NCBI RefSeq assembly: GCF_000473085.1
Contig: NZ_AXBA01000011.1
Coordinates: 15,886 to 47,885, forward strand
Source of the DNA: Azorhizobium doebereinerae UFLA1-100
Lineage (GTDB): Bacteria; Pseudomonadota; Alphaproteobacteria; Rhizobiales; Xanthobacteraceae
DNA: 32,000 nucleotides
Direction: 5' to 3'
The stretch's first letter is position 1, and every line of letters begins with the position of its first letter. The notes below the pieces were generated by a model that searched no databases, had not been told where the DNA came from, and worked only from the letters and a program-made list of their open reading frames with translations. A program made the translations under genes and the position numbers. This document shows, in pieces, positions 6,085 through 28,590 of the stretch.

Positions 6085-6210
6085 TTCATTCATCCGAAAA
6101 TACTCTATTGAAGTATGTCAATGATTGACAATCTGCGTTTTGACCCTTTATCGTCCTATTCAACAGCGCGACACGACGCTGCTTCTGATGTGTGTGGGGA
6201 TGATGGCCGC

Positions 6211-6534: not shown

Positions 6535-6639
6535 CCGGCGGCGCCCGAGGGCGCCTCATGTCTGCGTGGTCGGAAAGCGTGCCCGGTATAGCCGGCGCGC
6601 GAAGGCCGCCCGAAGTCTGCGAACAAGGACGTTTCTTAA

Positions 6640-11490: not shown

Positions 11491-11503
11491 GGAGGGCGCA
11501 GCC

Positions 11504-11980: not shown

Positions 11981-12792
11981 GCACCATGACAACCACCCTC
12001 AAACGCATCGCGGTAGAGCCGGGCGTCAGCCTGCAAGTGCGGGTCTCCGGCACTCCGGGCAAGCCGGCGTTGCTGCTCAGCAATTCGCTGACCGCGGACC
12101 TTAGCACCTGGGACGAGGTGGAGACGCGTCTCGCGCCGCATGCCTTCATCATCGGCTATGATACTCGCGGCCACGGCCGTTCCGACGCCCCCGGCGAGGG
12201 CTACACGCTCGGCCGGCTCGGCGCCGACGCGATTGCCATTCTGGACGCACTTTCCATCCCGAAGGCGGTGGTGTGCGGCCTGTCCCTCGGCGGGCTGACC
12301 GCCATGTGGCTCGGCGCCCACGTGCCGGATCGCGTCGCAGGATTGGTGCTGGCCAATACGGCCGCCAACTTCCCGCCGCCCGGTATGTGGGAGGAACGCG
12401 CCAGGGCGGCTCTGGAACGCGGTCTGGCGCCATTCGTGGCGCCGGCTCTCGAGCGCTGGTTCACGGCGGGCTTCCGGGCTGCGGCACCCGAGCGGGTGGC
12501 GCAGATCGCCCGGGTGATCGGTGCCACCTCGCCGGCCGGCTATGCGGGCTGCTGCCGCATCCTGGCCCATGCCGACGTGGGGCCCGACCTGGCCGCCATC
12601 GCCTGCCCGACGCTGGTGATCGCCGGCACGCATGATCCCTCCACGCCGCCGGCGCGCGCCGAGGAGATCTGCGCGGGCATTGCCGGCGCCGAGCTCGTTT
12701 GCCTCGATGCCGCGCACCTTTCGGCGGTCGAGGCGCCAGAGGCGTTTGCCGCGGCGGTGCAAGATTTCCTCCTCCGAACGCGGGCCGACTAA
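11977..12792 (+). CDS. Alpha/beta-hydrolase, 3-oxoadipate enol-lactonase (PcaD)-like
   Basis: YDTRGHGRSD, nucleophile elbow GLSLGG, C-terminal AAHLSAVEAPEAF. ATGA overlap with the coxG-like stop. Confidence 0.9.
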   Translation: MSTMTTTLKRIAVEPGVSLQVRVSGTPGKPALLLSNSLTADLSTWDEVETRLAPHAFIIGYDTRGHGRSDAPGEGYTLGRLGADAIAILDALSIPKAVVCGLSLGGLTAMWLGAHVPDRVAGLVLANTAANFPPPGMWEERARAALERGLAPFVAPALERWFTAGFRAAAPERVAQIARVIGATSPAGYAGCCRILAHADVGPDLAAIACPTLVIAGTHDPSTPPARAEEICAGIAGAELVCLDAAHLSAVEAPEAFAAAVQDFLLRTRAD

Positions 12793-12816
12793 CAAAAAAG
12801 AACCAGGGAGGACGCC

Positions 12817-13812
12817 ATGCTCAACCGTCGCATACAGGGTCTTCGCATCTCGGGCTTTGCGGCGGCGGTCGCCGCCGCCCTCTCGGCCGTTGTGCCCGCC
12901 AAGGCGCAGGCCCTCGATAAGCTGACCATCGTGGTGTTCGGGGCGCCCTCCCTCGGGGCGTTCCTGCCGCCGGTGATCAAGGCGCAGAAGCTGGATGAGA
13001 AGAACGGCCTCGCAATCACCTTCGACGAGCGCACGCCAGACGCCTACACTGCACAGTTCAATTCCGGCGAATACCAGTTGGGCGGCAGCGCTGCCCTGCT
13101 CACGGTGGGTCTCGCCGACCTGCGCGGGGTGAAGGTCACCTATCTATTTAACCTGTTCGATTATTGGGGCGCGGTCATCACGTCGCGACCCGAGATCAAG
13201 GTCCTGAGGGACCTGGAGGGCAAGGATCTCGCGGCTGCCAAGGGCACCACCAATTATGTGATGTTCGACTGGTTCGCCCGCCAGCAGGGCGTGGACACGG
13301 CGAAGATTTCCGTAGTGAACACGGCGACGCCGGGCCTCGTTGGCTATGCGCTGGCGGATCGTGCCTCGGCGGTGCAGTTGTGGGAGCCGGCCTATACCGC
13401 GCTGCTGGCGAAAAAGCCCACCATCCGCACCCTGGACCTCAAGATCGCGGAGAGCTGGAAGAAGGTCACCGGCTCCACAAATATTCCCTATCTCGGGGTG
13501 GCGGCGCACACCGACTGGGTGGCCAAGAACAAGCCGCTGATCCCCAAGCTCTATGCCGCCTACAAGGCCGCCGCTGAATGGGTGGTGGCCAATCCGGACG
13601 CGGCCGCCAAGCTGATCGCCCCCAAGGGCACGGCGGACGACCAGAAGGCGGTGGCCGACATCGTGCGGTCAAACGACCGGCTGGGCCTCAATGTCCGCTG
13701 GGCCGCCGACGTACGCAAGGAAATCGGCGCCGTCTACGCGGCCGGGCGCACCATCGACTTCCTGCCCGGCGAGCCCGCCGCGGCCACCATCTATGACGGA
13801 GGAAAGCCGTGA
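12817..13812 (+). CDS. ABC transporter substrate-binding protein 1 (NMT1/TauA/SsuA-like, NitT/TauT family)
   Basis: Sec-type signal peptide ISGFAAAVAAALSAVVPAKAQA. AGGGAGGA RBS. Immediately upstream of the matching permease and ATPase. Confidence 0.88.
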   Translation: MLNRRIQGLRISGFAAAVAAALSAVVPAKAQALDKLTIVVFGAPSLGAFLPPVIKAQKLDEKNGLAITFDERTPDAYTAQFNSGEYQLGGSAALLTVGLADLRGVKVTYLFNLFDYWGAVITSRPEIKVLRDLEGKDLAAAKGTTNYVMFDWFARQQGVDTAKISVVNTATPGLVGYALADRASAVQLWEPAYTALLAKKPTIRTLDLKIAESWKKVTGSTNIPYLGVAAHTDWVAKNKPLIPKLYAAYKAAAEWVVANPDAAAKLIAPKGTADDQKAVADIVRSNDRLGLNVRWAADVRKEIGAVYAAGRTIDFLPGEPAAATIYDGGKP

Positions 13813-14618
13813 GCGAGCGCACCCTTGACGGCACGTCGCCGCCCACGCCGATCATCGACGGAGCCTGGCGTGTCGTGCGCGCCCTCGCTCCGTTCATCTT
13901 CCTGGGGGCAGCATGGCAGGTCGCCTCGCTGTTCTTCCCGGCCTTCCTGTTTCCCTCGCTGGTGGCCGTGTTCTGGCGTTGCCTGGATATATTGGAGCAA
14001 TGGTCGCAGTTCGTGGATGTGCTCTACACCGTCGGGCGCATCCTGGCCGGGCTGGCCGGGGCCTTCATCATCGGCGCGGTGCTGGCGCTGATGATGGCGC
14101 GCTCCAAGCTGGTGGACGGTTTTCTTTCGCCCATCCTCACCTTCTTCCAAGGCATTCCGGCGCTGTCCTGGGTGGTGTTTGCCATCATCTGGTTCCACGG
14201 CGTCGAATTCCGCATCTTCTTCATCATGGTGTTGACGACCCTGCCGGCCTTCACTTTCCAGATCGTGAGCGCCTTGCGCGCCATGTCGAAAGACCTGGTG
14301 GAGATGGTGATGAGCTTTCGTCCCTCGCGGGTGCAGATGTTTCGCACGCTCATCCTGCCCTCCATCCTCCCGGAGATTCTCACAGCCTGGAAAGTCAACC
14401 TCGGCAACGCCTCGCGCGTTGTGGTGGTGGCCGAACTGGTGGGGGCGACGGGCGGTGTCGGGTATCAGCTGCTCCAGCAGCAGCAGATCTTCGATATGGC
14501 AGGCGCGCTGGCCTGGACGCTCCAGCTCGTGTTCTTCGTGCTCATCGTTCAATACATCCTGACGCTCATCGAAAACTTCGCCTTCCGGTACCGGGCCATC
14601 TCGGAGCGCTCCCTATGA
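13809..14618 (+). CDS. ABC transporter permease (NitT/TauT family)
   Basis: 269-aa, 6-TM BPD_transp_1-type protein. GTG start in a GTGA overlap with the SBP stop. Its stop overlaps the ATPase start. Confidence 0.9.
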   Translation: MSERTLDGTSPPTPIIDGAWRVVRALAPFIFLGAAWQVASLFFPAFLFPSLVAVFWRCLDILEQWSQFVDVLYTVGRILAGLAGAFIIGAVLALMMARSKLVDGFLSPILTFFQGIPALSWVVFAIIWFHGVEFRIFFIMVLTTLPAFTFQIVSALRAMSKDLVEMVMSFRPSRVQMFRTLILPSILPEILTAWKVNLGNASRVVVVAELVGATGGVGYQLLQQQQIFDMAGALAWTLQLVFFVLIVQYILTLIENFAFRYRAISERSL

Positions 14619-15391
14619 CCATGACGGACACCGCCCCTCCCGCCCGGCCGGAAATCCGCTTCGAGCACGTCTCGAAGACCTTCGGCCGGGTCGGCGCCAC
14701 CGATCTGTTCCGTGCCGTGGACGACCTCAATCTGGAGATCGGTAGCGGCGAGCTGGTGGCCATCCTGGGCAAGACCGGCTGCGGCAAGTCCACCATGTTC
14801 AACATGATCGCCGGCCTGCTGGAGCCGAGCGCCGGCAAGGTGGAAGTGTCGGGTCACGATCCCTTCGCACAGTTCAACTGGTTTCGCGGCAAGATCGCCA
14901 TCGTGTTCCAGAACGACCGCCTCCTGCCCTGGCGCACCGCTATCGAGAACGTAGCGTTCGGGCTGGAGATGCTGGACGTGCCGAAGGCGGAGCGCATGGC
15001 ATCCGCCCAGGCGTGGCTCACCAAGCTCGGCCTGGGCGGGCATGAGAACGACTATCCCCACGCGCTCTCGGGGGGAATGCGCCAGCGCGTGTCCATCGCC
15101 CGCGCCTTTGCCACCAATGCCAACATCCTGCTCTGCGACGAGCCGTTCTCGGCGCTGGACGAGATGACCGGAAACCGGCTGCGCGAGGAGTTCGCGCGGC
15201 TGGTGCGCGAGAATGGCAAGACAGCCGTCTTCATCACCCATTCCATCAATGAGGCGCTCCAGATCGGCGATCGCATCGTGGTGCTGCGCCGCCCCGCCAA
15301 GATCGCCTACGACACGCGCCTGGGGCGGGATGCGGACCACGGCGCCAAGGAAGACATCAGGGCGCGGATCCAGGCCGTGCTTGCCGAATAA
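14615..15391 (+). CDS. ABC transporter ATP-binding protein (NitT/TauT family)
   Basis: Walker A GKTGCGKST, signature LSGGMRQRVSIARA, Walker B LLCDEPFSALD. ATGA overlap with the permease. The track ORF from 13913 is over-extended. Confidence 0.93.
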   Translation: MTMTDTAPPARPEIRFEHVSKTFGRVGATDLFRAVDDLNLEIGSGELVAILGKTGCGKSTMFNMIAGLLEPSAGKVEVSGHDPFAQFNWFRGKIAIVFQNDRLLPWRTAIENVAFGLEMLDVPKAERMASAQAWLTKLGLGGHENDYPHALSGGMRQRVSIARAFATNANILLCDEPFSALDEMTGNRLREEFARLVRENGKTAVFITHSINEALQIGDRIVVLRRPAKIAYDTRLGRDADHGAKEDIRARIQAVLAE

Positions 15392-15431
15392 AACAGACGA
15401 CGGAAAGCCGCATCCCTCCAGGAGGTTCTCT

Positions 15432-16418
15432 ATGAGCGCCGGGGCCAGCCACCTCTCTCGCCGCAGCTTCATCGCCATGACGGCCGCCGCCACCATCGCC
15501 CGCCCGGCGCTGGCGGCTGCGGCCCAGCCGCTGACGATCAGCGTGGTGTTCGGGAATTCCATCCACTGGGTGATCTTCGCCGCGGTGGAGAAGGGGATGT
15601 TCAAGGACGAGGGCTTCGAGCCCAGCGTCCAGCCCCTGCAATCCTCCGCCCATTCGGTGCAGATGGCGCTCTCGGGCGATTTCCAGCTCGCCACCTCCCA
15701 GCCTGAGACCTTCGTCGCCGCAGTGGAGCAGGGGGCCGCCGACCTCGCGGCCATGACCGCGCCCATGAACCGCTCCGACTGGGTGCTGGTGGGCGCGCGC
15801 AACGTGACCAGCCTCGCCCAGCTCAAGGGCATGGCCATCGGCCTGTCCGGCCTTCGCAACAGCGAGGGCTGGCTGACGGATCGGCTGCTGGCCAGCCAGG
15901 GGCTGAAAAAGGGGGACTATCGCCTCACCATCGCCGGTACCTCGCCGGCCAAGGTGGCGGCGCTGGAGAAGGGCGGCATCGGCGCTGCTGTACTGTTTCA
16001 GCCGAGCGCGGAATTCGCCATCAAGCAGGGCCTGCCGGTATTGGCGCGGTTCGACACCATGCGCGCCTATCCCACCATCTTCTATATCGTGAAGAAGAGC
16101 TGGGCGGGCACCGACCAGTCCGGCGTGCGCGCCTCGCGCGCGTTGCAGAAATCCTATGCCTGGCTCTGGGACCCGGCCAACCGCGCTGAAGCGATCCAGA
16201 TCCTGGCCAAATACACAAAGCGCGAGCCGGCGTTGCTGGAGAGCGTCTATGACGATTATTTCATCAAGGCCAAGCTCTATTCGCGGGACGGCAAGGTGGA
16301 CCTTGCCGGCTTCACCGCCGTGCTGACCGACATGGCGGAAGATGGCGCGGTGTTCAAGACCGCGCCGTCCCCGGCCAAATTCATGCTCGCCCCCGAACTC
16401 GGCGGCCTGTCCGCCTGA
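15432..16418 (+). CDS. ABC transporter substrate-binding protein 2 (NMT1/TauA-like) with a twin-arginine-like signal
   Basis: MSAGASHLSRRSFIAMTAAATIARPALAAAA, then an NMT1-like body. GGAGG RBS at about 15418-15425. By eye it is only distantly similar to SBP1. Confidence 0.85.
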   Translation: MSAGASHLSRRSFIAMTAAATIARPALAAAAQPLTISVVFGNSIHWVIFAAVEKGMFKDEGFEPSVQPLQSSAHSVQMALSGDFQLATSQPETFVAAVEQGAADLAAMTAPMNRSDWVLVGARNVTSLAQLKGMAIGLSGLRNSEGWLTDRLLASQGLKKGDYRLTIAGTSPAKVAALEKGGIGAAVLFQPSAEFAIKQGLPVLARFDTMRAYPTIFYIVKKSWAGTDQSGVRASRALQKSYAWLWDPANRAEAIQILAKYTKREPALLESVYDDYFIKAKLYSRDGKVDLAGFTAVLTDMAEDGAVFKTAPSPAKFMLAPELGGLSA

Positions 16419-16494
16419 GCCCCGAACCCTGCGTGCCTCCCCCGGCGCGCCGCCGGGTGCGAGGCCGCTTGCCTGCTTCCCAGGAGATCCCCCA

Positions 16495-18117
16495 ATGTCC
16501 GCTCCTCGTCCCTATAACGACCTCCACGATCATCTGGACGCTCTGCGCGAGAAGGGGCTGCTGGTCACCGTGGACCGGCGGATCGACAAGGACAGCGAGA
16601 TGCACCCCTTGGTGCGCTGGCAGTTCGTCGGCGGCATGGACGAGAAGGACCGCAAGGCCTTCCTGTTCACCAACATCGTGGACGGCAAGGGCCGGCCTTA
16701 CGACATCCCCGTGGTCGTGGGCGCCATGGCGGCCAACCGGGCCGTCTACAGCGTCGGCATGGATTGCGACCTCGACAAGATCCAGGCCAAGTGGGACCAC
16801 GCGATCGCCCATCCCATCGATCCGCTGGTGGTGAACGATGCACCCTGCCATGAGGTGGTCCACGAGGGCGAGGCGGTGAAGGGCGAGGGCAACGGCCTCG
16901 ACCGTCTGCCCATTCCGGTCTCCACCCCCGGCTTCGACAGCGCCCCGACGCTGAGCGCCACCAACGTCATCACCAAGGATCCTCTCACCGGCATCCAGAA
17001 CATGGGCACCTACCGTGCCGCGCTGAAGGCCCCGGATCGCCTGGTGGTGCGCATGGCCACCCGCGTCGGCGGAGCGGGCGGGTACCAGCATTATCTCGCC
17101 CACCAGAAGCGCGGCGACACCGAAATGCCGGTAGCCATCGTGCTCGGCTGCCCGCCCTATGTGGCCTTCATGGGTCCGCAGAAGCTGCCCATCGGCGTGG
17201 ACGAATTCACCGTGGCTGGCGGGCTGGCGGGGGCGCCCATCAATGTGGTGCGGGCACGCACCGTGGACCTGCTGGTGCCGGCCGAGGCCGAGGTGGTGAT
17301 CGAGGGCTATATCGACACCACGCGGGTGGAGCCGGAGGCGCCGTTCGGGGAATCCCATGGCCATATTGCGCTTGAGGAGTTCAACATGCCCATGCGCGTC
17401 ACCGCCATCACCCATCGCCGGGATGCGGTGATCCCCTCCTATATCAGCCAGGTGGCGCCGAGCGAATCCAGCGTCATCAAGCGCGTTGCCTACGAGCCCT
17501 TGTTCCTCGCCCATCTGCGCGACACGCTCTCCATCAAGGGGGTGAAGAAAGTGTCGCTGCACGAACCGCTCACCGGCCTGCTGCGCGTCACCATCATCAC
17601 CCTGGAGCGGGACGTGCCGCGCACCGAGGTGTGGCGCGCGCTCTATGGCGCGGCCTATTTCAAGGGCGACTGCTCGAAGATCTGCATCGCCATCAATGAC
17701 GATATCGACCCGGACAATGGCGACGCGCTGCTGTGGGCCATGGGCTACAGGTCAAACCCCATTCACGATGTGCAGACCCTGGCCCACCGCGGCGCCGGCC
17801 ACGGTCCCAAGCGCGAGAGCGCACAGGAGGAGGATTCCACACTCCTGATCGACGCCACCATGAAGTCTCCCATGCCGCCGCTCGCGCTGCCCAAGCGGGA
17901 GTTCATGGAGAAGGCCAAGACCATCTGGGAGGAACTGGGCCTGCCCGCCTTGCGCCCGCAGGCGCCCTGGTTCGGCTATTCGCTGGGCGATTGGATGCCG
18001 CAGTGGGATGAGGCCGCCGCCCGCGCGGTCGCCGGCGACTATCTGGTGAACGGCCGCAACAGCCTTGCCGCGCAGCAGCCCGGCCTGAAGCCCGAAACCA
18101 AGTTTCGGCCGACCTGA
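16495..18117 (+). CDS. UbiD-family (prFMN-dependent) aromatic acid decarboxylase
   Basis: 540 aa. N-terminus YNDLHDHLDALREKGLLVTVDRRIDKDSEMHPLVRWQF, then NMGTYRA and the EAPFGESHGH catalytic-Glu motif. AGGAGA RBS at 16482-16487. The track ORF from 16342 is over-extended. Confidence 0.92.
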   Translation: MSAPRPYNDLHDHLDALREKGLLVTVDRRIDKDSEMHPLVRWQFVGGMDEKDRKAFLFTNIVDGKGRPYDIPVVVGAMAANRAVYSVGMDCDLDKIQAKWDHAIAHPIDPLVVNDAPCHEVVHEGEAVKGEGNGLDRLPIPVSTPGFDSAPTLSATNVITKDPLTGIQNMGTYRAALKAPDRLVVRMATRVGGAGGYQHYLAHQKRGDTEMPVAIVLGCPPYVAFMGPQKLPIGVDEFTVAGGLAGAPINVVRARTVDLLVPAEAEVVIEGYIDTTRVEPEAPFGESHGHIALEEFNMPMRVTAITHRRDAVIPSYISQVAPSESSVIKRVAYEPLFLAHLRDTLSIKGVKKVSLHEPLTGLLRVTIITLERDVPRTEVWRALYGAAYFKGDCSKICIAINDDIDPDNGDALLWAMGYRSNPIHDVQTLAHRGAGHGPKRESAQEEDSTLLIDATMKSPMPPLALPKREFMEKAKTIWEELGLPALRPQAPWFGYSLGDWMPQWDEAAARAVAGDYLVNGRNSLAAQQPGLKPETKFRPT

Positions 18118-18270: not shown

Positions 18271-19233
18271 TCAGCCGGCGAGTAAGCGCACGGGCGCACC
18301 GGCACGCCAGGCGAGGATGTCTTCGACGCAATCGTCGAAGAACTGGGCATAGGTCGTGTCGGTCACGTAGCCGAGGTGGGGGGTGAGCACCACGTCGTCG
18401 CGCTGCCGCAGGGGGTGGCCGGCGGGAAGCGGCTCCTGATCGAAGACATCGAGGCCCGCGCGCAGGCCGCCGGCATCCAGGCGGGCGATCAATGCCGCCT
18501 CGTCCACCAGCGGGCCACGGGACGTGTTCACGAGGATCGAGCCGGGCTCCAGCCGCGCCAGTTCGGGAGCGCTCACCACGCCTCGTGTCCGGTCGCTCAG
18601 TACCAGGTGGATGGTCACCACGTCGGCGCGATCGAACAGTTCCTCCTTCGCCACCAGTTCGGCGCCTGCGGCAGCGGCGCGGTCGGCGGTGAGGTTCTGG
18701 CTCCAGGCGATCACCGGCATGCCGAAGGCCCGGGCGATGGAAGCCATGCGCGCGCCCATCTTGCCCAAGCCCACCAGGCCGAGCGTGCGGCCTTCCAGCG
18801 TCGTTCCCAGCGTGCGCTGCCATCCGCCGTCTCGAACGTTGCGGTGTTCCTGCGGGATGTGACGGGCGCAGGCGAGGATGAGCCCCCAGGCCAGCTCCGG
18901 GGTGGCAAAGCTGGAATCCCCGCCGCGCGTGTGGCAGATGACGACGCCGCGCGCCTCGGCAGCCGCGAAGTCGATGGAGCGAGTGCGCACACCCGTCACC
19001 ACCATCAGCTTCAGGTTCGGCAGCCTCTCCAGCAACTCCGCCCGAACCGGCATGCGCTCGCGCATCAGGCACAGGACGTCGAACGGAGCCAAGGCCTCTG
19101 CCTGCGCGTCCAGGGTCGGCAGATGCTGGTCGAACACGGTGATTTGGGCATCGGGGCCGAGCCGTTTCCAGTCGGCCATCTTCAGGGCGACGTTCTGGTA
19201 GTCGTCCAGGATGGCGATGCGCAGTGCAGCCAT
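18271..19233 (-). CDS. D-isomer-specific 2-hydroxyacid dehydrogenase family protein (NAD-binding)
   Basis: Rossmann motif GLVGLGKMGARMA and family C-terminal block NTSRGPLVDEAAL...VLTPHLGY. Start set at MAALRIAILDDY (19233). The alternative ATG at 19278 has no RBS. Confidence 0.9.
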   Translation of the reverse strand: MAALRIAILDDYQNVALKMADWKRLGPDAQITVFDQHLPTLDAQAEALAPFDVLCLMRERMPVRAELLERLPNLKLMVVTGVRTRSIDFAAAEARGVVICHTRGGDSSFATPELAWGLILACARHIPQEHRNVRDGGWQRTLGTTLEGRTLGLVGLGKMGARMASIARAFGMPVIAWSQNLTADRAAAAGAELVAKEELFDRADVVTIHLVLSDRTRGVVSAPELARLEPGSILVNTSRGPLVDEAALIARLDAGGLRAGLDVFDQEPLPAGHPLRQRDDVVLTPHLGYVTDTTYAQFFDDCVEDILAWRAGAPVRLLAG

Positions 19234-19335
19234 GGGGGTGATCTCGTCTCTGAAGGGGAAGGAGGCCCAAGACTGCATGTCCGGGCGCCGCCGTACAGCG
19301 CCGATGCGATCACGATAGCGCGCCGTCCACCGGTG

Positions 19336-20073
19336 TCAGGCCGCTTCCAGACCCATCATCGCCCGGCGCAGGTCCTCCGGGTCGATGCTGCCGGCGCTGC
19401 GGTCGATGGTGCGGATGATGCGGCCATGGGACAGCACATAGGCGCGGGCGGCAAGGTCCACCGCCTGGAAGAAGCTCTGCTCCGCCATGAGGATGGTGAG
19501 GTTCTGCTCGGCCTGGAGCGCGCGCACGGCCTCGAACACCTGGGCCACGACGATGGGCGCGAGGCCCACCGAGGGCTCGTCGATGACGACGAGGCGCGGC
19601 GAGGTCATCAGCGCGCGGGCGATGGCGAGGAGCTGCTGCTGCCCTCCGCTCATGGTGGAGGCCCGCTGGGTCCTGCGCTCCCGCAGCAGGGGGAAGGTCG
19701 CGTAGCAGAATGCAAGATTGCGCGCGAGGTCGTTGCGGGCGCGCGGGCAACTGCCCGCGAGCACGAGGTTCTCCTCCACCGTGAGGTTGGGCACCAGCCG
19801 GCGGCCCTCCGGCACCAGGGCGATGCCCTCGTTGACGATGCGGTGGGGCGGCAGCTTCGTGAGATCGACGGTGCGGCCGTCCCACTCCAGCAGAATGCGC
19901 CCGCGCGTGGGTTTGACGAAGCCGAGGATGGCGTGGAGCAAAGTGCTCTTGCCATTGCCGTTGGTGCCCAGCAGCGCCACGAACTCGCTTTCGTTCAGCT
20001 CCAGCGAGACGTCGTGCAGCACGGCCACCGCGCCATAGCCGGCGCTGAGGTTTTCAATGACGAGCCTGTTCAC
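19336..20073 (-). CDS. Branched-chain-amino-acid-type (HAAT family) ABC transporter ATP-binding protein, LivF-like
   Basis: Walker A GTNGNGKSTL, signature MSGGQQQLLAIARAL, Walker B VVIDEPSVGLAP. The start is uncertain. GTG 20073 gives the usual short N-terminus (VNRLVIENLSAGYG). The ATGs at 20103 and 20115 would overlap the livG-like gene more deeply. Confidence 0.88.
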   Translation of the reverse strand: MNRLVIENLSAGYGAVAVLHDVSLELNESEFVALLGTNGNGKSTLLHAILGFVKPTRGRILLEWDGRTVDLTKLPPHRIVNEGIALVPEGRRLVPNLTVEENLVLAGSCPRARNDLARNLAFCYATFPLLRERRTQRASTMSGGQQQLLAIARALMTSPRLVVIDEPSVGLAPIVVAQVFEAVRALQAEQNLTILMAEQSFFQAVDLAARAYVLSHGRIIRTIDRSAGSIDPEDLRRAMMGLEAA

Positions 20074-20779
20074 CGAAATAGACCTTCTGAACGAGCGGAT
20101 CATTGGCGATGGCATCCGGCAGGCCGTCGGCGATGAGCCGACCGGTCTCCAGGCAGATGATGCGGTGGGAGAAGCGCATCACCGCATGCATGATGTGCTC
20201 GATCATGATGACGGCGACGCCGCTCTCGTTGAGGCGTTCGAGGATGGCGAGCACGTCGTCGATCTCGCGGTCCGACAGGCCCGCCATGGCCTCGTCCGCG
20301 ATCAGCACTTTGGGCCGCCCCGCCAGCGCCCGCGCCAGCTCCAGCTTGCGCAGTTCGAGTTGGGTGAGGCCGCCGGCCTCATGGCCGGCGCGCCCGGCAA
20401 GGCCCACGGAGGCCAGAACCTCCATAGCGCGGGCGCGCGGATCGGCCACATCATGGAGATGATCGAGGGGCACCAGGAGGTTCTCCAGCACGCTCATGCC
20501 GGTGAATGGCTTGGGGATCTGGAAGCTGCGCGCCAGCCCCATGCGGGCACGCCGGTGCGGTGCAAGGTCGGTGACCTTGCGGCCGAGGAACCAGACCTCG
20601 CCCGCGCTCGGCGTGAGGGTGCCGGTGAGGCAGTTGATGAGGGTCGTCTTGCCCGACCCATTGGGCCCGATCACTCCGAGCCGCTCGCCGGCTTTGAGTG
20701 AAACCGAGATGGGGCCGAGCGCCCTCAGCGCCCCGAAGCTCTTCTCAACATTCTCGACCAAGAGGATGGGATCGCTCAC
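20054..20779 (-). CDS. HAAT-family ABC transporter ATP-binding protein, LivG-like
   Basis: VSDPILLVENVEKSFGALRAL, Walker A GPNGSGKTT, Walker B LIADEAMAGLS. GTG start in a GTGA overlap with the upstream permease stop. The 636-aa track ORF is an artefactual extension. Confidence 0.9.
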   Translation of the reverse strand: MSDPILLVENVEKSFGALRALGPISVSLKAGERLGVIGPNGSGKTTLINCLTGTLTPSAGEVWFLGRKVTDLAPHRRARMGLARSFQIPKPFTGMSVLENLLVPLDHLHDVADPRARAMEVLASVGLAGRAGHEAGGLTQLELRKLELARALAGRPKVLIADEAMAGLSDREIDDVLAILERLNESGVAVIMIEHIMHAVMRFSHRIICLETGRLIADGLPDAIANDPLVQKVYFGEQARH

Positions 20780-21780
20780 TGCCGGCCCTTTCTCAGCGTG
20801 TCGACGAGGCCGAGGATGCCGTCCGGCGCGGCGGCGACGAAGCCGATGAGGACGACGCCGACCAGCAGAATGTTGAGTTCCGAGGAAATGGTGATGGTGG
20901 CGGCCTGCTGCACCGAGCCCAGCAGCACGGCCCCGATGATCGGCCCCGGCCAGGATTTTTTGCCCCCGATCAGCGGCATGGCGATGGCGTTGAGGGCGAG
21001 GGCAAGGCCGAACACCGTCTCCGGCTCGATGAAGGAGGCATAGAAGACCAGCGGCGCGCCGGTCATGGCCAGGATCGCGCCCGATATGGCGCAGGCGGAG
21101 AGCTTGAGCCTGAACGTGGGCACGCCCGCGCACTCGGCGGCCTCCTCGGAAGCCCGCAGCGCGCGGAAGCCCCGGCCCACCCAGGAGATCTCGATCCAGC
21201 GGGCGCAGGCCACCGCCAGCACGGCGATGCCCAGCATTACCAGGAACACGAACTGCACCTGCCCGCCGGTCCAGGCGGGCGGCTCGGGCGGCATCAGGGC
21301 AAGGCCACTGGCCCCGCCGAGATAATCGATGTTCAGCACCAGCGTGTGCATCATCACCACCAGCGCGATGGTGGCGATGGCGAAATAGACGCCCTGCACG
21401 CGCAGCGTCATGTAACCCATGAGCAGGCCGAGCCCGCCGCCCACCAGCGCCGCCGCCGGCAGGCAGAGGAAGATGGAGGCGCCATATGCCTTCAGCAGGA
21501 AGGCCCCTGTATAGGCGCCGGCGCCATAGAAGGCGGTGGCGCCGAAATTGATGTAGCCGGCATAGCCGCCCAGCACGTTCCAGCCCGTGGCGAGGGCCAC
21601 CTGCTGCACGATGATGAAGGCGGCGAAGAACACGTAGGGGTTGGCGATGGTCTGCGTCAGGACGGCGCCCAGGGCGAGCACTGCGAGAGCGCAGGCGCAG
21701 AACACCAGGGTGCGGGCCTCCGGTGCCCGCGCGGCGGCGGGCGGGGGAGCGGCGGTCATCAGGGAGGTCTTCGCGGTCAT
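20776..21780 (-). CDS. HAAT-family ABC transporter permease, LivM-like
   Basis: 334-aa polytopic membrane protein. ATGA overlap with the LivH-like stop. Confidence 0.9.
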   Translation of the reverse strand: MTAKTSLMTAAPPPAAARAPEARTLVFCACALAVLALGAVLTQTIANPYVFFAAFIIVQQVALATGWNVLGGYAGYINFGATAFYGAGAYTGAFLLKAYGASIFLCLPAAALVGGGLGLLMGYMTLRVQGVYFAIATIALVVMMHTLVLNIDYLGGASGLALMPPEPPAWTGGQVQFVFLVMLGIAVLAVACARWIEISWVGRGFRALRASEEAAECAGVPTFRLKLSACAISGAILAMTGAPLVFYASFIEPETVFGLALALNAIAMPLIGGKKSWPGPIIGAVLLGSVQQAATITISSELNILLVGVVLIGFVAAAPDGILGLVDTLRKGRQ

Positions 21781-22652
21781 CGGTGCGCTCCGAACAGGCC
21801 CTCGGGGCGCAGCGCCAGGGTGGCGAGCAGGATGGAGAAGGCGACCGCCGGTGCCCAGGACGGGCTAGCGAAAGCGGAGACCATGGATTCCGACACGCCG
21901 ATGAGGATGCCGGCGGCGATGGTGCCGGGCAGTGAGCCCATGCCCGCCAGCACCACCACCGCAAATGTGCGGCCGATCATCAGCCGCCCGCCGAACGGGT
22001 CCACGGGGCCGATGATGATGAGCGCGGCGCCGGCGACGACGGCGGTGGCCGCGGCGATGCCGAAGGCGTGGCGCTTGATCCAGCGCGGGTCGATGCCGCT
22101 CACCGACAGAGCGCGCTCGTCATGGGCCACCGCGCGGATGGCGATGCCCGCGTGGGTAAAGCGCAGGTAGAGCCAGAGCAGGAGGATCATGACCGGCGCC
22201 AGCAGCGCCGGCACCAGCAGCCGGTAGGGCAGGGACAGGAGGCCGATGGTCAGGCTCTGGCCCACATAGGCGACGCTGACCGATTGCTGGTTGGTGCCGA
22301 ACTTGATGAGCAGCGCCGTCTCCACCACGAGCGAGACGCCGAAGAACAAGGTGAGGGCATTCATGGTGTCGGCGGCGCCGCGCCGCTCGAACAGGCGAGC
22401 ATAGAATTCGTAGAAGCCAAGGCCGGCCACATAGAAGGGCACGAGGGCGACCAGCGCCACCAGCAGCGGATCGAAGCCACAGGAATTGCCCACGGCCACC
22501 ACATAGGCGCCGGCCACCACGAAGGCGGGATGGGCGATGTTCGGGATATGCAGCAGGCCGAACGTCACGGCGAGGCCGAGCGCCAGCGCGGCATAGATGC
22601 TGCCGAGCATCACGCCGGTGCCGATGGCGTTGACGAACTGGTCAAGAAACAT
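21777..22652 (-). CDS. HAAT-family ABC transporter permease, LivH-like
   Basis: 291-aa polytopic protein with N-terminus MFLDQFVNAIGTGVMLGSIYAALALGL, typical of LivH. Confidence 0.92.
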   Translation of the reverse strand: MFLDQFVNAIGTGVMLGSIYAALALGLAVTFGLLHIPNIAHPAFVVAGAYVVAVGNSCGFDPLLVALVALVPFYVAGLGFYEFYARLFERRGAADTMNALTLFFGVSLVVETALLIKFGTNQQSVSVAYVGQSLTIGLLSLPYRLLVPALLAPVMILLLWLYLRFTHAGIAIRAVAHDERALSVSGIDPRWIKRHAFGIAAATAVVAGAALIIIGPVDPFGGRLMIGRTFAVVVLAGMGSLPGTIAAGILIGVSESMVSAFASPSWAPAVAFSILLATLALRPEGLFGAHR

Positions 22653-22715
22653 GGTCGGCGCTCCGGCGGGGTGGAGGCGTACCGGCGGCGACCGCCGCCG
22701 GCGCGCGGAGGGCGA

Positions 22716-23984
22716 TCACGCGCCGCGCGCTTTGAGGAACGGCTGCGCCAGCTCGCCCGACTTCAGCGCCGGCGGATCGAGGATCACCTGCCGTCCCGCC
22801 TGTCGGAACTGCTCGATGTCATTGCCCTTGATGCCCTGGAACTGCGTCATCAGCACCCGCCGCTCGGTCCAGTCCCCCAGTTCGTTGAAGGTGGCGGTTC
22901 CGACCAGGGTCTTGACCGGATTGGCATGCAGCCAGGTCGCCATGGCCGCGCTTTCGGTGGAGCCGGTGGCCGTCACCGCGGCGGCGATCAGCTGACCCGC
23001 CACATAATAGAAGGGCGGGATGTAATAGCCGAGCGCGTCGAGCTTCTCCGGCACGGCGATGGCGGTGTAGCGGTCGAGGAAGCTGGTCACCGCCGGGGTG
23101 ACCATGGTGGGCTCCGGCACGAACAGGTTGAAGTTGACGATGCCGTTGAGCGAAGAGCCCAGCGCCTGGAGGGTCGCCGCATATTGCGGGCCCACCATGG
23201 CGCCGCCGAACAGCTTGACACTGTCGCCGATGCCCACTTCCGACAGGCCGCGGATCAGCGCGCTGCTGTCTGGCGGATAAGAGCAGACGAACACCGCGTC
23301 CGGCGTGGCGCCGCGCAGGTTCCGCAGGATGGCGGAAAAGTCGGAGGTGTTGGGCGGATAGCTCTGCTCGAACACCACCTCCTGCCCCAGTTCCTTCGCC
23401 GCCGTCTTGCCGCCGGCGGCAGAGACCTTGGCGAACTCCACGTCGGCGTTCAGCACCGCGATGCGCTTGCACCCCGCCGCCTTGCCCACCTCGAAGAAGC
23501 CGCGCGCCCAGTTCACCTTGGCGTCCGGCCCCCAGGGGGCGCTGTGGAAATAGCGGTCGCTCTTCACCCCGTCATTGCCGGCGAGGGCGAACATGCCGGC
23601 CATGAAGCGGCCGCGCTGCTTGATGAAGGGCATCACCGGGGCAGACAGCACCGCGCCATAAGGCGAGACGAGGATGTCCACCTTGTCGATGTCCACCAGC
23701 TTCGAATAGATGCTGGGGATCTGCGCCACAGTGCTCTGGTCGTCATAGGTGACCAGCTCCACCTGGCGGCCCAGCAGGCCACCGGCGGCGTTCACGTCAT
23801 CGCGCCAGAGCTGGAGGCCGACGAGCCCCGCCTTGGTGGAGGACAAGGGGCCGGTCATGGAAAAGCTGGCGCCGATGCGGATCGGCCGGTTCTGCGCGCG
23901 TCCCGTGGTCCACACGGCGGGCGCGGCCAAGGCGAGGCCGGTGGCGGCGGCGAGTTTGCCGAGGCGCCTGCGGGAAATGGTCAT
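22716..23984 (-). CDS. HAAT-family (LivK/Peripla_BP_6-type) substrate-binding protein with a twin-arginine-like signal
   Basis: MTISRRRLGKLAAATGLALAAPAVWTTGRAQ, then IRIGASFSMTGPLSSTKAG, typical of Leu/Ile/Val-binding-fold SBPs. GGGGAGGA RBS before ATG 23984. The track start at 24008 is rejected. Confidence 0.9.
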   Translation of the reverse strand: MTISRRRLGKLAAATGLALAAPAVWTTGRAQNRPIRIGASFSMTGPLSSTKAGLVGLQLWRDDVNAAGGLLGRQVELVTYDDQSTVAQIPSIYSKLVDIDKVDILVSPYGAVLSAPVMPFIKQRGRFMAGMFALAGNDGVKSDRYFHSAPWGPDAKVNWARGFFEVGKAAGCKRIAVLNADVEFAKVSAAGGKTAAKELGQEVVFEQSYPPNTSDFSAILRNLRGATPDAVFVCSYPPDSSALIRGLSEVGIGDSVKLFGGAMVGPQYAATLQALGSSLNGIVNFNLFVPEPTMVTPAVTSFLDRYTAIAVPEKLDALGYYIPPFYYVAGQLIAAAVTATGSTESAAMATWLHANPVKTLVGTATFNELGDWTERRVLMTQFQGIKGNDIEQFRQAGRQVILDPPALKSGELAQPFLKARGA

Positions 23985-24051: not shown

Positions 24052-24417
24052 TCAGAGCGCGACCGAGGGATAATCCTTGCCGTTCCAATGCTGGAGTCTG
24101 GCGGCGAACTCCCGCTGGAAGGCGAGGGGACCGCTCCGGTGCATGTAGTCTTCGTCGTACAAGGCGATGAAGATGGTCAGTGACAGGAAGAAATGGGCGC
24201 CCATTTCGAACAGCGCCACATAGTCGTGCGCGATGAGCGCTTCGCGCTCAGCCTCGGTGAAGCCGGTGACGGAGGTCCGCTCGGTCTCATTGAGGCGGGG
24301 GCCTATGGACTGTTCCCAGGTGGTCACGAAGGACCGTGGGTCCTCCTTGTAGCGCTGGAGGTAGTTCGGATTTCCATCCACGGTGTAGAGGAACTTGTTC
24401 ACATAATACTTGCTCAT
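24052..24417 (-). CDS. LigA-type small (alpha) subunit of a class III extradiol ring-cleavage dioxygenase
   Basis: 121 aa. The pattern YYVNKFLYTV...RYKEDPRSF...FTEAEREALIAHDYVALFEMGAHFF parallels the LigA consensus (YNLNQF...RF..D...Y...LT..E..A...RDY..M...G). Its start overlaps the stop of the LigB-like gene. Confidence 0.8.
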   Translation of the reverse strand: MSKYYVNKFLYTVDGNPNYLQRYKEDPRSFVTTWEQSIGPRLNETERTSVTGFTEAEREALIAHDYVALFEMGAHFFLSLTIFIALYDEDYMHRSGPLAFQREFAARLQHWNGKDYPSVAL

Positions 24418-25274
24418 GCGCGTCCCTCCTCCGGATACCAGGTCAGATAGGCTTCACGGGTGTGGTAGAGGTCGAGGCTGTCCACATAGGCGGCCTTCTG
24501 CGGCCCGGCGATGCCCATCATCAGGATGAGGTCCATGAAGCCGTGGGTGGCGTTGCCCGCCTTGGTCATGCTCTCATGGGTCACGTTCTCCAGGATCGCC
24601 TCGATGTTGCCGGTGGAGAGCCATTCGATGGCCTGGAGGTCGAACTCCGGGTCCGGGCCGTGCTCGCCGAACTGGCGCGGCCCGCCAAGCTCCAGCGACA
24701 GATGGCCCGAGCCCACGGCGGCGATGCGCTGGTCGGAGGGATAGGCGTCGATGACTTCGCGGATCGCCCGCCCGAGGTCCCAGAAGCGCCGGGGCGATGG
24801 CAGCGGCGGCGCGAAGATGTTGGTGTAGATGGGCACCACCGGCAAGTCCGCCTGCGGGCGGGTGGTGATGATCGGGCAGATGATGGAATGGTCGATCTTC
24901 AGCTCGTGGCTGAAGGAGAAATCGAAGCCCCGATCCAGAAGCCCCTGGTGCATGAAGCGCGAGAGATCCTCGTGCCCTTCCAGCACGTATTTCGGCAGGC
25001 CGAACTCGCGCTCCTCATTGTAGAAGGTGGCGTCGTAGCGGGGCGCCTTGCCAATGAGGAAGGTGGGGTAATTGTCCAGGAAGAATTGATGAAAGTGGTC
25101 CGCGCCGACCATTACCAGGATGTCGGGGGCGGCGCGCGTGAGGGTCTCGCGGTAGGCTTCCACCTTGCGCTTCCATTCCGCCGCCTGGGGGATCTGCTCC
25201 TCCACGGGGGCGGTGGTCGCCTTCAGGTAGAAGGGGTGATGGGTGGTGGCCAGTACGGCCGCCAGAGTCGCCAT
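24414..25274 (-). CDS. LigB-type catalytic (beta) subunit of a class III extradiol dioxygenase
   Basis: 286 aa. TTHHPFY, VMVGADHFHQFFLDNYPTFLIG, KIDHSIICP and AVGSGHLSLEL blocks of the LigB family. GGGGAGGA RBS before ATG 25274. The 578-aa track ORF is over-extended. Confidence 0.9.
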   Translation of the reverse strand: MATLAAVLATTHHPFYLKATTAPVEEQIPQAAEWKRKVEAYRETLTRAAPDILVMVGADHFHQFFLDNYPTFLIGKAPRYDATFYNEEREFGLPKYVLEGHEDLSRFMHQGLLDRGFDFSFSHELKIDHSIICPIITTRPQADLPVVPIYTNIFAPPLPSPRRFWDLGRAIREVIDAYPSDQRIAAVGSGHLSLELGGPRQFGEHGPDPEFDLQAIEWLSTGNIEAILENVTHESMTKAGNATHGFMDLILMMGIAGPQKAAYVDSLDLYHTREAYLTWYPEEGRA

Positions 25275-25315: not shown

Positions 25316-26503
25316 TCAGGCCGTCTGTTCCAGTATCGCGGCCACGCCCCGCGCGGGCCAATTGTGCCGGTCGCCCCCCAAGGCGCGGCGGATCCGGGCG
25401 CCATCCTCGTCCACCGTCGGCGCCGCCTTCACCGCATGGGCGCGCTGATGGTCGAAGCTGAAGGCGGGGCGCACCGAGAAAGAGGCACCTTCCGTGCGTT
25501 CGTTCACCGGGACGATCACGCCGAGATGGTTCACCTGCGGGTCTTCGACCACGTCCGGAATGGAATTGATGGGCGCATAGGGCACATCGAACGCCGCGAA
25601 GCGCTCCACCCACTCCGCGCGGTCGCGCTGCGCGAAGATGGCGTTCAGTTCGTCCGACAGTTCCAGATAATTGTCGATGCGCTTCAGGCGGACGGAGAAG
25701 CGCAGGTCGGCGGCGAGCTGCGTCGCGCCGGTGGCCTCCACCAGCGCGTCCCAGAACTTGTCGAGGGAGGAGAGGTGGAAGGCGAACAGCTTCCCATCCT
25801 TGCAGCGCACGATATAGGCCTGCGCGAGGCGCGGCCGGTCGATGCCGGTGGGCTGCTCGCCGAGCGCGAAATAGCCCATGAAGGGCTCCACCGCGAAATG
25901 CATCATGGCTTCGAGCATGGAGATTTCCACCAGCCGCCCCTTGCCGGTGCGCCCTCGTTCGACCAGAGCCCCGGCAATGCCCAGCGCCGCATAGATGCCG
26001 GTGATGGCATCCGCCAGCGCCGGCCCGATGAAGCGCGGCTGCTCGGGATCGATGGCGACGCCCAGGAAGCCGCTCACCGCCTGCGCGACGGAATCGTAGA
26101 CCGGCCGCTTGGCATAAGGCCCGTCCTGGCCGAACCCGCTGATGGAACAATAGACGAGACGCGGATTGATGGCGTGCAGCGTCTCGGCGTCCGCCCCGAT
26201 GCGTCCCGCTGCGCCGGGGCGGAAGTTCTGGATGTAGACGTCGGCATTGCGGATGAGGTCGTAGAAGACCTCCTTGTCGGCCTCGGCCTTCATGTCCAGG
26301 CAGATGCTGCGCTTGTTGCGGTTGTAGGCCTGGAAATGGGCGCTGTAGAAGCCGGTCTTGAAGCTGCGGTAGGGATCGCCGTTGCCGGCGCTTTCCACCT
26401 TGATGACATCGGCACCGAGGTCCGCCAGCATCATGCCGGCGCAGGGGCCGGTGATGAAGGTGCCCTGTTCCACGATGCGCACGTCGTTGAGAACGCCGAA
26501 CAT
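25316..26503 (-). CDS. Family III CoA-transferase (CaiB/BaiF/Frc family)
   Basis: VRIVEQGTFITGPCAGMMLADLGADVIKVE N-terminal signature, and ALADAITG with the candidate catalytic Asp. Start set at MFGVLNDVRIV (ATG 26503) with GAGGAA upstream. Confidence 0.92.
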   Translation of the reverse strand: MFGVLNDVRIVEQGTFITGPCAGMMLADLGADVIKVESAGNGDPYRSFKTGFYSAHFQAYNRNKRSICLDMKAEADKEVFYDLIRNADVYIQNFRPGAAGRIGADAETLHAINPRLVYCSISGFGQDGPYAKRPVYDSVAQAVSGFLGVAIDPEQPRFIGPALADAITGIYAALGIAGALVERGRTGKGRLVEISMLEAMMHFAVEPFMGYFALGEQPTGIDRPRLAQAYIVRCKDGKLFAFHLSSLDKFWDALVEATGATQLAADLRFSVRLKRIDNYLELSDELNAIFAQRDRAEWVERFAAFDVPYAPINSIPDVVEDPQVNHLGVIVPVNERTEGASFSVRPAFSFDHQRAHAVKAAPTVDEDGARIRRALGGDRHNWPARGVAAILEQTA

Positions 26504-26513
26504 CCCGAATTCC

Positions 26514-27326
26514 TCAATTCTCGTTGGCGACGAAACCGTCAGGGGCGGGACCGTCATAGGTGATGGCCGACGAGGCGGCATGGGACATCAGGAAGCCGAT
26601 GGGGTGGACCTGCTCCTCCAGCAGATGGCCGATCAGGCCGGCGGCGCGCGCCAGCAGCGGCACCCCGCGCAGGGCGAGCAGCGGGTAGTCCGCATCCAGC
26701 AGCACGCAGGGGATGGCGCTGGATACGTTCATCACCAGTGGCCGGTTGATGAGCTCCGGCAGCAGCCGCTCCACCGCCAGCGCCACCTCGCAATGGCGCC
26801 CGTGCAGGCCGAGCTCGCGGGCGATGGCCAAAAGGCGCGCGGCGCGGGGATCGGCCCCCTTGTGCAGGGGGTGGCCGTAGCCGGGGATGGCGCGCTTGGC
26901 GGCGCGATAGCCGCGCACGATCTTGGCGATGGCCGCGTCCAGCGAAGCGCCGGTGGCGTCCTGCTCGGCGAGGATTTCCGCGAACAAAGCGCCGGCATCG
27001 GCGGAGGCGCCGAGAATGACGGAGCCGCATCCCAAAAGGCCGGCGGCCACCGCCCCCTGCAAGGCTTCGGGCGCAGAGGCCAATGTCATGCGCGCCGCCT
27101 GCACGCTGGGCACGAGGCCGTGCTCGGCGATGGCGACCAGGGTCGCGTCCAGCATGGCGCGTTGCGCATCGGTGGGCAGGGTGCCGGCGACGAGCAGCCA
27201 GGTGTGGTCGGTGAAGGTGATGCGGCCGATCAGGTCGTTCACCAGGTCATGGCCGCGGACGAGGATGGTATCGGGATTGGATCCCGAGATGCCCGTGGTG
27301 GGCGAGGTTTCAGCACCGATCTTCAA
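26514..27326 (-). CDS. Short citrate-synthase-like protein ('citryl-CoA lyase' family)
   Basis: AIAEHGLVPSVQAARM and PGYGHPLHKGADPRA correspond to the two catalytic-His blocks of citrate synthase. The protein is ~270 aa and lacks the citrate synthase N-terminal region. Start set at TTG 27326 (GGGAGA RBS 6-7 nt upstream). The longer track ORF runs through operator-like DNA and is Arg-rich noise. Confidence 0.78.
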   Translation of the reverse strand: MKIGAETSPTTGISGSNPDTILVRGHDLVNDLIGRITFTDHTWLLVAGTLPTDAQRAMLDATLVAIAEHGLVPSVQAARMTLASAPEALQGAVAAGLLGCGSVILGASADAGALFAEILAEQDATGASLDAAIAKIVRGYRAAKRAIPGYGHPLHKGADPRAARLLAIARELGLHGRHCEVALAVERLLPELINRPLVMNVSSAIPCVLLDADYPLLALRGVPLLARAAGLIGHLLEEQVHPIGFLMSHAASSAITYDGPAPDGFVANEN

Positions 27327-27510
27327 GGTTGTTCTCCCAGGTGGGCCGGGTCCGCCGACATGGTGGATCCGGCGCGCCTGAAGCCCGGCGCGGCGGCACA
27401 ATGCGCGGCCGCGGGCGCGGCACACGGCGGCGCAATCTCCACCACGACGGTGTTCGGGCGCATGGCGTTTTCTCCGGCAAGCTCCGCCCTGAACGGTACG
27501 GGCTTTATTA

Positions 27511-27538
27511 TTTTCGCTGAGCGAATTTTTATTCGCCA
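27511..27538. promoter_or_regulatory. Candidate IclR operator, site 1 (tripartite TTCGC half-site motif), upstream of operon 2
   Basis: TTTTCGCTGAGCGAATTTTTATTCGCCA = palindrome TTCGC-TGA-GCGAA plus a third half-site ATTCGCC. GCGAAT-TTTT-ATTCGC is also an inverted repeat. About 185 nt upstream of the TTG start at 27326. Confidence 0.45.
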
Positions 27539-27663: not shown

Positions 27664-27687
27664 TTTTCGTTAGACGAATATTCGCCA
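27664..27687. promoter_or_regulatory. Candidate IclR operator, site 2 (same motif), upstream of iclR
   Basis: TTTTCGTTAGACGAATATTCGCCA = palindrome TTCGT-TAG-ACGAA plus the overlapping perfect 10-bp palindrome CGAATATTCG and the terminal ATTCGCCA shared with site 1. It lies 46-64 nt upstream of the iclR start, just downstream of a TTGACA hexamer at 27626-27631. Confidence 0.45.
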
Positions 27688-27732: not shown

Positions 27733-28590
27733 GTGACACTCATTTCTGAGATGCCGGCCCCCAGCGCCAAGGCCGCGGACGAGCCTGTGCCCGACCGTGG
27801 CGGCACGGAATTCGTGGAGGCCCTTGCGCGTGGTCTCGCCGTTCTGGAGACCTTCGATGCGGGGCATTCGGAGATGTCGCTGACCGAGATCGCGCGGCGC
27901 ACGGGCATGAGCCCCGCGACCGCCCGGCGCAGCCTCCACACCTTGGCCGCGCTGGGCTATGTGCGTCATCACAACAAGCGCTATGTGCTGGCCGCACGCG
28001 TTCTCGCCCTCGGCGCGTCCTATCTGCGCGCCGCCCATGTGGAAGAGGCGCTGATGCCGGAGTTGCGGCGGCTCGTCGCCCAGTTCGGCGACGCCTCCTC
28101 CGTCAGCATTCTCGACGGGCCCAACATCCTCTACGTGGCTCATTGTTCGGAGCAGCGCGCGTCCCGGCCGGCGGCGACCATCGGCGCGACCTATCCGGGC
28201 TATGCCACCTCCATGGGGCGCGTGATGCTCTCGCGGATGCCGCCGGAAGCCATCGAGATGTATCTCGCCCAACTCCGCCCCGCCAAGCTCACCGAGCATA
28301 CCGAGACCGATATCGGAAAGCTGCGCCAGATCCTCGCCGAAGTCCGCCAGCTCGGCTATGCGGTGGTCGTGGATCAACTGGACTATGGGGTCACCTCGCT
28401 CGCCGTTCCCGTAAAGGATCACACCGGGCGGGTGGTCGCTGCCGTCAACAGTTCCGGCTATTCCGGAAAGCTCAGCGCCGACCGTCTCGTCGCCGAACGC
28501 CTGGCCGAATTGCAGATGTCCGCGGCGCGCATCACCCAGGTCTTCGCGCGCTACCCGGCGCTCCTGTATTCGCTCCGCCATGCCGGCTAG
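27733..28590 (+). CDS. IclR-family transcriptional regulator (PcaR/PobR-like)
   Basis: EFVEALARGLAVLETF, HTH MSLTEIARRTGMSPATARRSLHTLAALGYV, and a C-terminal IclR effector domain (VAAVNSSGY). GTG start at 27733, alternative ATG at 27751. Confidence 0.9.
   Translation: MTLISEMPAPSAKAADEPVPDRGGTEFVEALARGLAVLETFDAGHSEMSLTEIARRTGMSPATARRSLHTLAALGYVRHHNKRYVLAARVLALGASYLRAAHVEEALMPELRRLVAQFGDASSVSILDGPNILYVAHCSEQRASRPAATIGATYPGYATSMGRVMLSRMPPEAIEMYLAQLRPAKLTEHTETDIGKLRQILAEVRQLGYAVVVDQLDYGVTSLAVPVKDHTGRVVAAVNSSGYSGKLSADRLVAERLAELQMSAARITQVFARYPALLYSLRHAG

Follow-up and report, generated by a model that had tools for sequence, protein, structure and literature searches.

The gene pair at positions 25316 to 27326 is a real and widespread module, in which the citryl-CoA lyase (CCL)-like member likely carries out a reaction different from that given by its database name. 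In the window, i.e. the whole stretch of 32,000 nt from Azorhizobium doebereinerae UFLA1-100 that was analysed, the pair comprises the following features:

26514..27326, minus strand: CCL-type citrate-synthase-fold protein, 270 aa (NF004868 match, 6hxp match, predicted model, clade)
27333..27338, minus strand: GGGAGA ribosome-binding site, 6 nt 5' of the TTG start
25316..26503, minus strand: family III (CaiB/Frc) CoA-transferase, 395 aa (PF02515, E 3e-107)
26009-26011, minus strand: codon of Asp165 at the catalytic position of the CoA-transferase (Asp in 90/91 homologues)

An earlier note on this DNA had described two genes 10 nt apart and a TTG start with a GGGAGA ribosome-binding site. Both genes are real, and the CoA-transferase gene begins 10 nt past the stop codon of the 270-aa ORF. 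The start position of this ORF is common to all 80 closest homologues (41 ATG, 23 GTG, 15 TTG and 1 CTG), among which the residues K2-I3-G4 are invariant. Judged by homology, the TTG start is right. The concern that automated gene callers may miss it proved unfounded: an ESM Atlas entry is identical to the 270-aa sequence letter for letter, and relatives are found in public records at 270 aa, annotated as citryl-CoA lyase. A promoter scan of the region gave no signal above chance. Over the whole length of the transferase, PF02515 is matched and the catalytic Asp is present, which places the protein in family III. Its scores are below every NCBIfam cut-off for the named subfamilies (Frc, YfdE, CaiB, Mct and others).

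The 270-aa protein is a full-length CCL-type protein and not, as the earlier note had it, a truncated protein devoid of about 100 or more N-terminal residues. Its length is that of a whole stand-alone CCL (6hxp, NF004868). It scores 314.9 bits with NF004868 (NCBIfam PRK06224, 'citryl-CoA lyase') against a cut-off of 193, and all NCBIfam synthase models remain far under their cut-offs. The best solved relative by sequence is the CCL of Hydrogenobacter thermophilus (PDB 6hxp, E 6e-34). The predicted model has a pLDDT of 93 and a TM of 0.83 to 6hxp; the fold match of this model has a Z of 26.4 and an rmsd of 2.2, with 245 residues aligned (256 in the 6hxp structure). The protein thus has the stand-alone citrate-synthase core fold of about 260 aa and falls short of the ~370 to 430 aa of citrate synthase. 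A truncated or broken citrate synthase was ruled out by the full CCL length, the conserved start and end, and the pLDDT.

Residue equivalences were taken from sequence alignments with 6hxp, ACL and the genome's own citrate synthases, backed by the fold-level match. Three positions of the active site are altered:

26721..26723, minus strand: codon of Ser202, at the position of Asp375 (citrate synthase) or Asp1026 (ACLY) (alignments)
27015..27017, minus strand: codon of Ile104, at the position of His274; the His is lost (alignments)
26868..26873, minus strand: codons of His152-Pro153; the His320 equivalent is kept and the next Arg (ACLY Arg976) is replaced by Pro (alignments)

In citrate synthase, Asp375 deprotonates acetyl-CoA (PMC5830745). 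The acetyl group is bound by His274 and Asp375, and oxaloacetate by Arg329, Arg401, His320 and Arg421 (bioRxiv 2024.11.06.622199). The D1026A variant of ACLY is inactive, and Arg976 contributes to CoA binding (PMC10115795); this study argues for an allosteric role of the ACLY domain, whereas others treat the Asp as a base.

The segment NVSS falls on NVDG in the alignment with H. thermophilus CCL and ACL, and on NIDF in that with the genome's own citrate synthase. This bears out the Asp-to-Ser replacement proposed previously, Ser202 being present in 81/81 close homologues, as is Pro153. A catalytic Asp at a shifted position was ruled out by the alignments: Asp211 near Ser202 matches a separate Asp of ACL. 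The keto-acid-binding residues His238, His320, Arg329 and Arg401 have equivalents in His69, His152, Arg161 and Arg227, and no match to the Arg421 motif was found in the alignment. The two His blocks of citrate synthase that were described earlier as kept are those of His238 and His320; at the His274 position, the protein reads GSVILGA and the genome's own citrate synthase GPAHGGA. His69, His152, His155, Asp159, Arg161, Asn200 and Arg227 are invariant or nearly so down to about 32% identity.

With Ile104 and Ser202 in place of the His274 and Asp375 pair, and with the low synthase scores, the protein is not a citrate synthase, in agreement with the earlier note. The step from there to a lyase or hydrolase does not follow, however. 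As ACLY D1026A is inactive, the same Asp is needed in the lyase direction, and its loss weighs against a classical lyase or hydrolase as well. The loss of His274 alone is not decisive, since ACL lacks it too. By sequence, the protein belongs to PRK06224, yet it lacks the catalytic residues that define citrate synthase and citryl-CoA lyase.

In a quick tree of 63 rows, including two citrate synthases, a branch with an SH-aLRT of 99 sets the 37 Asp-less sequences apart from the rest. In these 37, position 202 is occupied by S, N, T or A and position 153 by Pro or His, and a His at 104 does not occur. The Asp and a basic residue at 153 are present in all 24 sister sequences, 23 of which also have the His. 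As position 202 varies across the Asp-less clade, Ser202 represents a loss and not a replacement catalyst. New nucleophiles were ruled out in the same way for Ser202 (N/T/A) and for Cys100 (S/M/A/V/G in the wider clade). The name 'citryl-CoA lyase' of PRK06224 is carried over onto the Asp-less branch. The taxa with the module belong to Alpha-, Beta- and Gammaproteobacteria and Actinobacteria, often as genomes from soil metagenomes.

The same genome encodes a second Asp-less CCL-type protein of 35% identity with Thr at the Asp position (L082, G000:C50:26144-28476), behind an AMP-forming CoA ligase and together with IclR, SDR and tripartite transporter genes. A sister branch of PRK06224 (L138-L160) keeps Asp, His and Arg and is often accompanied by genes for a family III transferase and a tripartite tricarboxylate transporter; its members are candidates for true citryl-CoA-type lyases in heterotrophs.

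The genomic neighborhood was compared across related loci and genomes, so that the counts given here and below are not independent of each other. The CoA-transferase is found within the locus in 79/80 closest relatives of the CCL-like protein, the IclR gene in 68 and the Liv-type importer in 12 of these 80 loci. Of 36 members of the Asp-less clade, 34 have a gene for a family III transferase or an AMP-forming CoA ligase at a distance of up to 3.5 kb, among them the second copy of the A. doebereinerae genome. The ligase replaces the transferase in 6 to 7 distant members, in one of them beside an intradiol dioxygenase. The use of two unrelated activating enzymes points to a CoA ester. Since 16/24 Asp-intact relatives also have a family III transferase alongside, the pairing predates the Asp-less function. 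Very probably, the CCL-like protein and the neighbouring transferase act jointly on a CoA ester, as had been suggested earlier with co-occurrence as a check.

The pair is usually first in its operon. Ring-cleavage partners in the 95 loci of the close group are LigB-like proteins (16), intradiol enzymes closest to hydroxyquinol 1,2-dioxygenase (15, or 19 by tree), HapCD-like subunits of the hydroquinone-dioxygenase type (3) and VOC proteins (49), the latter being putative dioxygenases by their conserved His/His/Glu residues. LigB-like genes never occur together with the other types, and no ring-cleavage gene was seen in 20 of the 95 loci. With LigAB in only 16/95 loci, a LigAB-specific module was ruled out. 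Genes of quinone-reductase families are common (WrbA-like in 38/95 and FMN reductase in 19/95 loci); also frequent are genes for an alpha/beta hydrolase and for two MetE-like proteins that carry Zn-ligand motifs. Flavin hydroxylases occur in few loci. A clear aldehyde dehydrogenase is present in only two module loci, which makes it probable that ring opening directly yields an acid or ester. LeuC and/or LeuD-type genes were found in six loci of distant taxa. Enzymes of this type hydrate maleate and citraconate; no citable paper on a LeuCD-type maleate hydratase was found among the papers searched, largely those available without subscription.

In many Steroidobacteraceae and other loci (among them L014, L033, L036 and L063), the pair is followed by two distinct MetE-like proteins, in which His-x-Cys, Glu and Cys motifs are conserved, together with a VOC protein and a TonB receptor. 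On plasmid pBB2 of Cupriavidus necator N-1 (L089:12001-21551), genes for an Asp-less CCL, a CoA ligase and an intradiol dioxygenase adjoin those for a family III transferase, an HMG-CoA-lyase-like protein and LeuCD, which reads like a cluster for the release and breakdown of an alkylmaleate. Another cluster of the A. doebereinerae genome (L223, G000:C55:2205-10870) encodes an intradiol dioxygenase, an SDR, an enzyme of the beta-keto acid cleavage (BKACE) family, an ABC importer and an amidohydrolase with a possible Tat signal. This cluster contains no maleylacetate reductase and is possibly another non-standard lower route.

Further features of the window are located up- and downstream of the pair:

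24414..25274, minus strand: atypical LigB-like class III dioxygenase subunit (PF02900; alignment to 1b4u and DesB)
24052..24417, minus strand: small partner subunit, LigA-like by position and size (follows the LigB-like gene in homologous loci)
19336..23984, minus strand: Liv-type ABC importer, five genes (profile matches)
27733..28590, plus strand: divergent IclR/PcaR-like regulator (profile matches; in 68/80 loci)
27513..27525, no strand assigned: palindrome TTCG(C/T)-N3-(A/G)CGAA, candidate IclR operator 1
27666..27678, no strand assigned: second copy of the palindrome, candidate operator 2
6115-18117: operon 1 (Mo hydroxylase, amidohydrolase, CoxG, PcaD-like hydrolase, ABC importer, UbiD)

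In the LigB-like protein, Leu occupies the His195 position, a His is found three residues before it, and Glu242 is unmatched. The protein is 86% identical to a Rhodococcus plasmid protein, and no match at E 1e-40 was obtained in 400 sampled Alphaproteobacteria-level genomes except its own. The small partner subunit has no Pfam or NCBIfam match. Protocatechuate 4,5-cleavage by the Lig pathway is not indicated: these two LigB positions are unmatched, and none of the Lig-pathway dehydrogenase, hydrolase, hydratase and aldolase genes is found in the operon. Nor does the module operon of the window contain a hydroxylase, hydratase or LeuCD gene. In Rhodococcus and Nonomuraea, this LigAB type is accompanied by an Asp-less CCL and another transferase; in Rhizobium johnstonii, a fumarylacetoacetate-family hydrolase takes their place. 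On two Rhizobium plasmids, a cytochrome P450 is encoded beside the same LigAB type (L218:2602-3816; L219:2858-4033), and the retrieved stretches of both contain no CCL or transferase gene.

Of 11 genome-wide matches to the palindrome, two are located in the spacer between the module and the IclR gene. The D-2-hydroxyacid dehydrogenase gene (18271-19278) is not supported as part of the module: it has no orthologue in module loci, and its Azorhizobium orthologue is located ~420 kb from the module. Operon 1 is likewise not supported as an upper pathway, a UbiD orthologue being present in one of five module genomes, that of a close relative. In Aquabacter sp. CN5-332, this operon is conserved at a distance of ~27 kb to the module.

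Maleylacetate reductase (MAR) was searched with a query validated beforehand, using a neighbourhood of ~8 kb around control dioxygenases. Of 29 ordinary hydroxyquinol dioxygenases, 22 have a MAR gene nearby, but the 95 module loci contain none, including the 19 with a hydroxyquinol dioxygenase, five of which are on contigs of 2.8 to 12 kb. Fourteen of these 19 dioxygenases form a clade of their own (100/99). At the genome level, MAR was detected in 11/52 module genomes, many of them incomplete, and in 4/11 among those known to be complete. It was not found in the nearly complete genome studied here, where the best match has an E of 3e-24, compared to 1e-106 or better for full-length orthologues. 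A strict replacement of MAR by the module had to be softened, as MAR is encoded 10 to 15 kb away from the module in two genomes, in one of them next to genes for 3-oxoadipate transferase and thiolase. This suggests that the module handles a product unsuited to the usual route and is not a plain substitute.

We consider it probable that the pair represents the lower half of a pathway for an oxygen-rich aromatic compound of hydroxyquinol or hydroquinone type, i.e. that it acts downstream of ring opening. The earlier idea that it acts on an aromatic ring-fission acid is probably right; different dioxygenase types alternate beside the pair in the 95 loci. The substrate is probably substituted at the ring (hydroxy, methoxy or alkyl). 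Ring opening by a dioxygenase, in this operon the atypical LigAB, would give a maleylacetate-type 4-oxo-hex-2-enedioate, from which the family III transferase would form a 3-oxoacyl-CoA ester. The Asp-less CCL-fold protein would then break a C-C bond without the usual Asp/His machinery for the acetyl-CoA enolate. The products may be acetyl-CoA and a substituted maleate, or oxaloacetate if the substituent is hydroxy; we hold this part of the proposal only tentatively. A cyclic lactol form of the CoA ester would resemble citryl-CoA, and the exchange of the transferase for a CoA ligase favours activation before cleavage. On the other hand, a proton donor is required for the release of acetyl-CoA, and the residue that normally serves is lost. 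A candidate for this role is Glu68, but this residue is Asp in actinobacterial members.

The pair may hold the same position in the pathway with other chemistry, which is conceivable though rather unlikely. In a BKACE-like variant, a free beta-keto acid and acetyl-CoA would be converted to a maleyl-type CoA ester and acetoacetate, the transferase moving the CoA afterwards; in a retro-aldol variant, a hydrated ester would yield glyoxylate, pyruvate or oxalate and acetoacetyl-CoA. Both variants proceed without a plain acetyl-CoA enolate, which would explain why Asp375 and His274 were lost together. The unmatched Arg421 motif is consistent with a smaller keto acid, and the separate cluster of the genome does combine a BKACE gene with those for an intradiol dioxygenase and a related amidohydrolase. 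The CoA ligases of distant members, however, argue for activation first, and no hydratase or thiolase is a constant neighbour of the module. These routes explain the lost residues better than acetyl-CoA cleavage does and fit the CoA-ligase variants less well. A classical 3-hydroxyacyl-CoA lyase of the citryl, citramalyl or malyl type with another proton donor would agree with the retained fold and keto-acid residues, the public annotation, the absence of His274 from ACL itself and a supply of malate or citramalate by LeuCD. It is nevertheless very unlikely, as the Asp is absent from the whole clade, sister clades keep Asp, His and Arg together, ACLY is inactivated by D1026A (PMC10115795) and LeuCD is present in few loci.

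The combined loss of Asp375, His274 and the CoA-binding Arg, and the allosteric role argued for the homologous ACLY domain (PMC10115795), would also be consistent with a non-catalytic protein that serves to bind or protect a labile CoA ester, or to assist the transferase. The near invariance of seven residues, the pairing with two unrelated activating enzymes and an operon without any other C-C cleaving gene render this equally improbable. Quite unlikely as well is a role upstream of ring cleavage, in which the pair would activate an aromatic or quinol acid with CoA and remove its side chain to provide a quinone or hydroquinone for the dioxygenase. The usual position at the head of the operon and the frequent quinone reductases would fit, as would a distant member with CoA ligase next to a PcpA-like gene and MAR, and one module near a full set of canonical lower-pathway genes. 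Such a role would not account for the absence of MAR next to the dioxygenases linked to the module and from the majority of the module genomes searched, and flavin hydroxylases are rare in the loci.

Returning to the lower-pathway reading, a literature search, largely limited to papers available without subscription, found no characterisation of the Asp-less branch or the gene cluster; the only relevant mention is at annotation level, in the phn island of Delftia (PMC3318190). In line with the earlier note, no characterised aromatic pathway of this kind was found, nor was the pair found to correspond to a known citramalyl-, malyl- or citryl-CoA module with an assigned function. It is conceivable, if unlikely, that the citrate-synthase-fold enzyme has new C-C cleavage chemistry and that, together with the transferase, it provides many soil bacteria with a central pathway, not described so far, for tetra-oxygenated or methoxylated benzenes. 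Several unrelated dioxygenase families would converge on this pathway, with Zn-dependent demethylation by the MetE-like proteins. An example substrate would presumably be 2,6-dimethoxyhydroquinone derived from syringyl lignin. If the module is an alternative to MAR, it would close a gap in the final steps by which bacteria degrade hydroquinones and hydroxyquinols that carry substituents and derive from lignin or plant phenolics, and it would add a reaction to the citrate-synthase fold. Many 'citryl-CoA lyase' or 'citrate synthase' labels fall in the Asp-less branch and may wrongly suggest a reductive TCA cycle or citrate metabolism.

Compared to known systems, the CCL-like protein resembles H. 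thermophilus CCL (6hxp) and the CCL module of ACL in length, fold, ~33% identity and the four keto-acid-binding equivalents. It differs from them by Ser at Asp375/1026, Ile at His274, Pro for the Arg past His320 and EHG in place of DHG, as well as by its location in catabolic operons with CoA-transferase and ring-cleavage genes. With Si-citrate synthase and 2-methylcitrate synthase it has in common the fold of the catalytic core (Z 17 to 19) and a portion of the oxaloacetate site, but lacks the N-terminal region, both acetyl-binding and enolising residues and a match to the Arg421 motif. Within PRK06224, the protein is a member by score, but the Asp is absent in its branch and kept in the sister branches with DHG/HGG/NID. 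CoA-transferase and lyase modules are known for itaconate, citramalate and malate. These also combine family III activation with subsequent C-C cleavage, but their lyases belong to the CitE or HMG-CoA-lyase families and not to the citrate-synthase fold. The fungal 1,2,3,5-tetrahydroxybenzene pathway (bioRxiv 10.1101/2023.06.06.543907) is similar in its oxygen-rich ring, in its terminal FAH-like hydrolase and in that no reductase step is described; it differs in its genes (DUF3500, FAH-like), and no CoA step is reported. The hydroxyquinol branch (hydroxyquinol 1,2-dioxygenase, MAR, PcaIJF) shares an intradiol dioxygenase, a YciI-like gene and a related amidohydrolase with related loci, whereas the 95 module loci encode, in place of MAR, a family III transferase and an Asp-less CCL protein.
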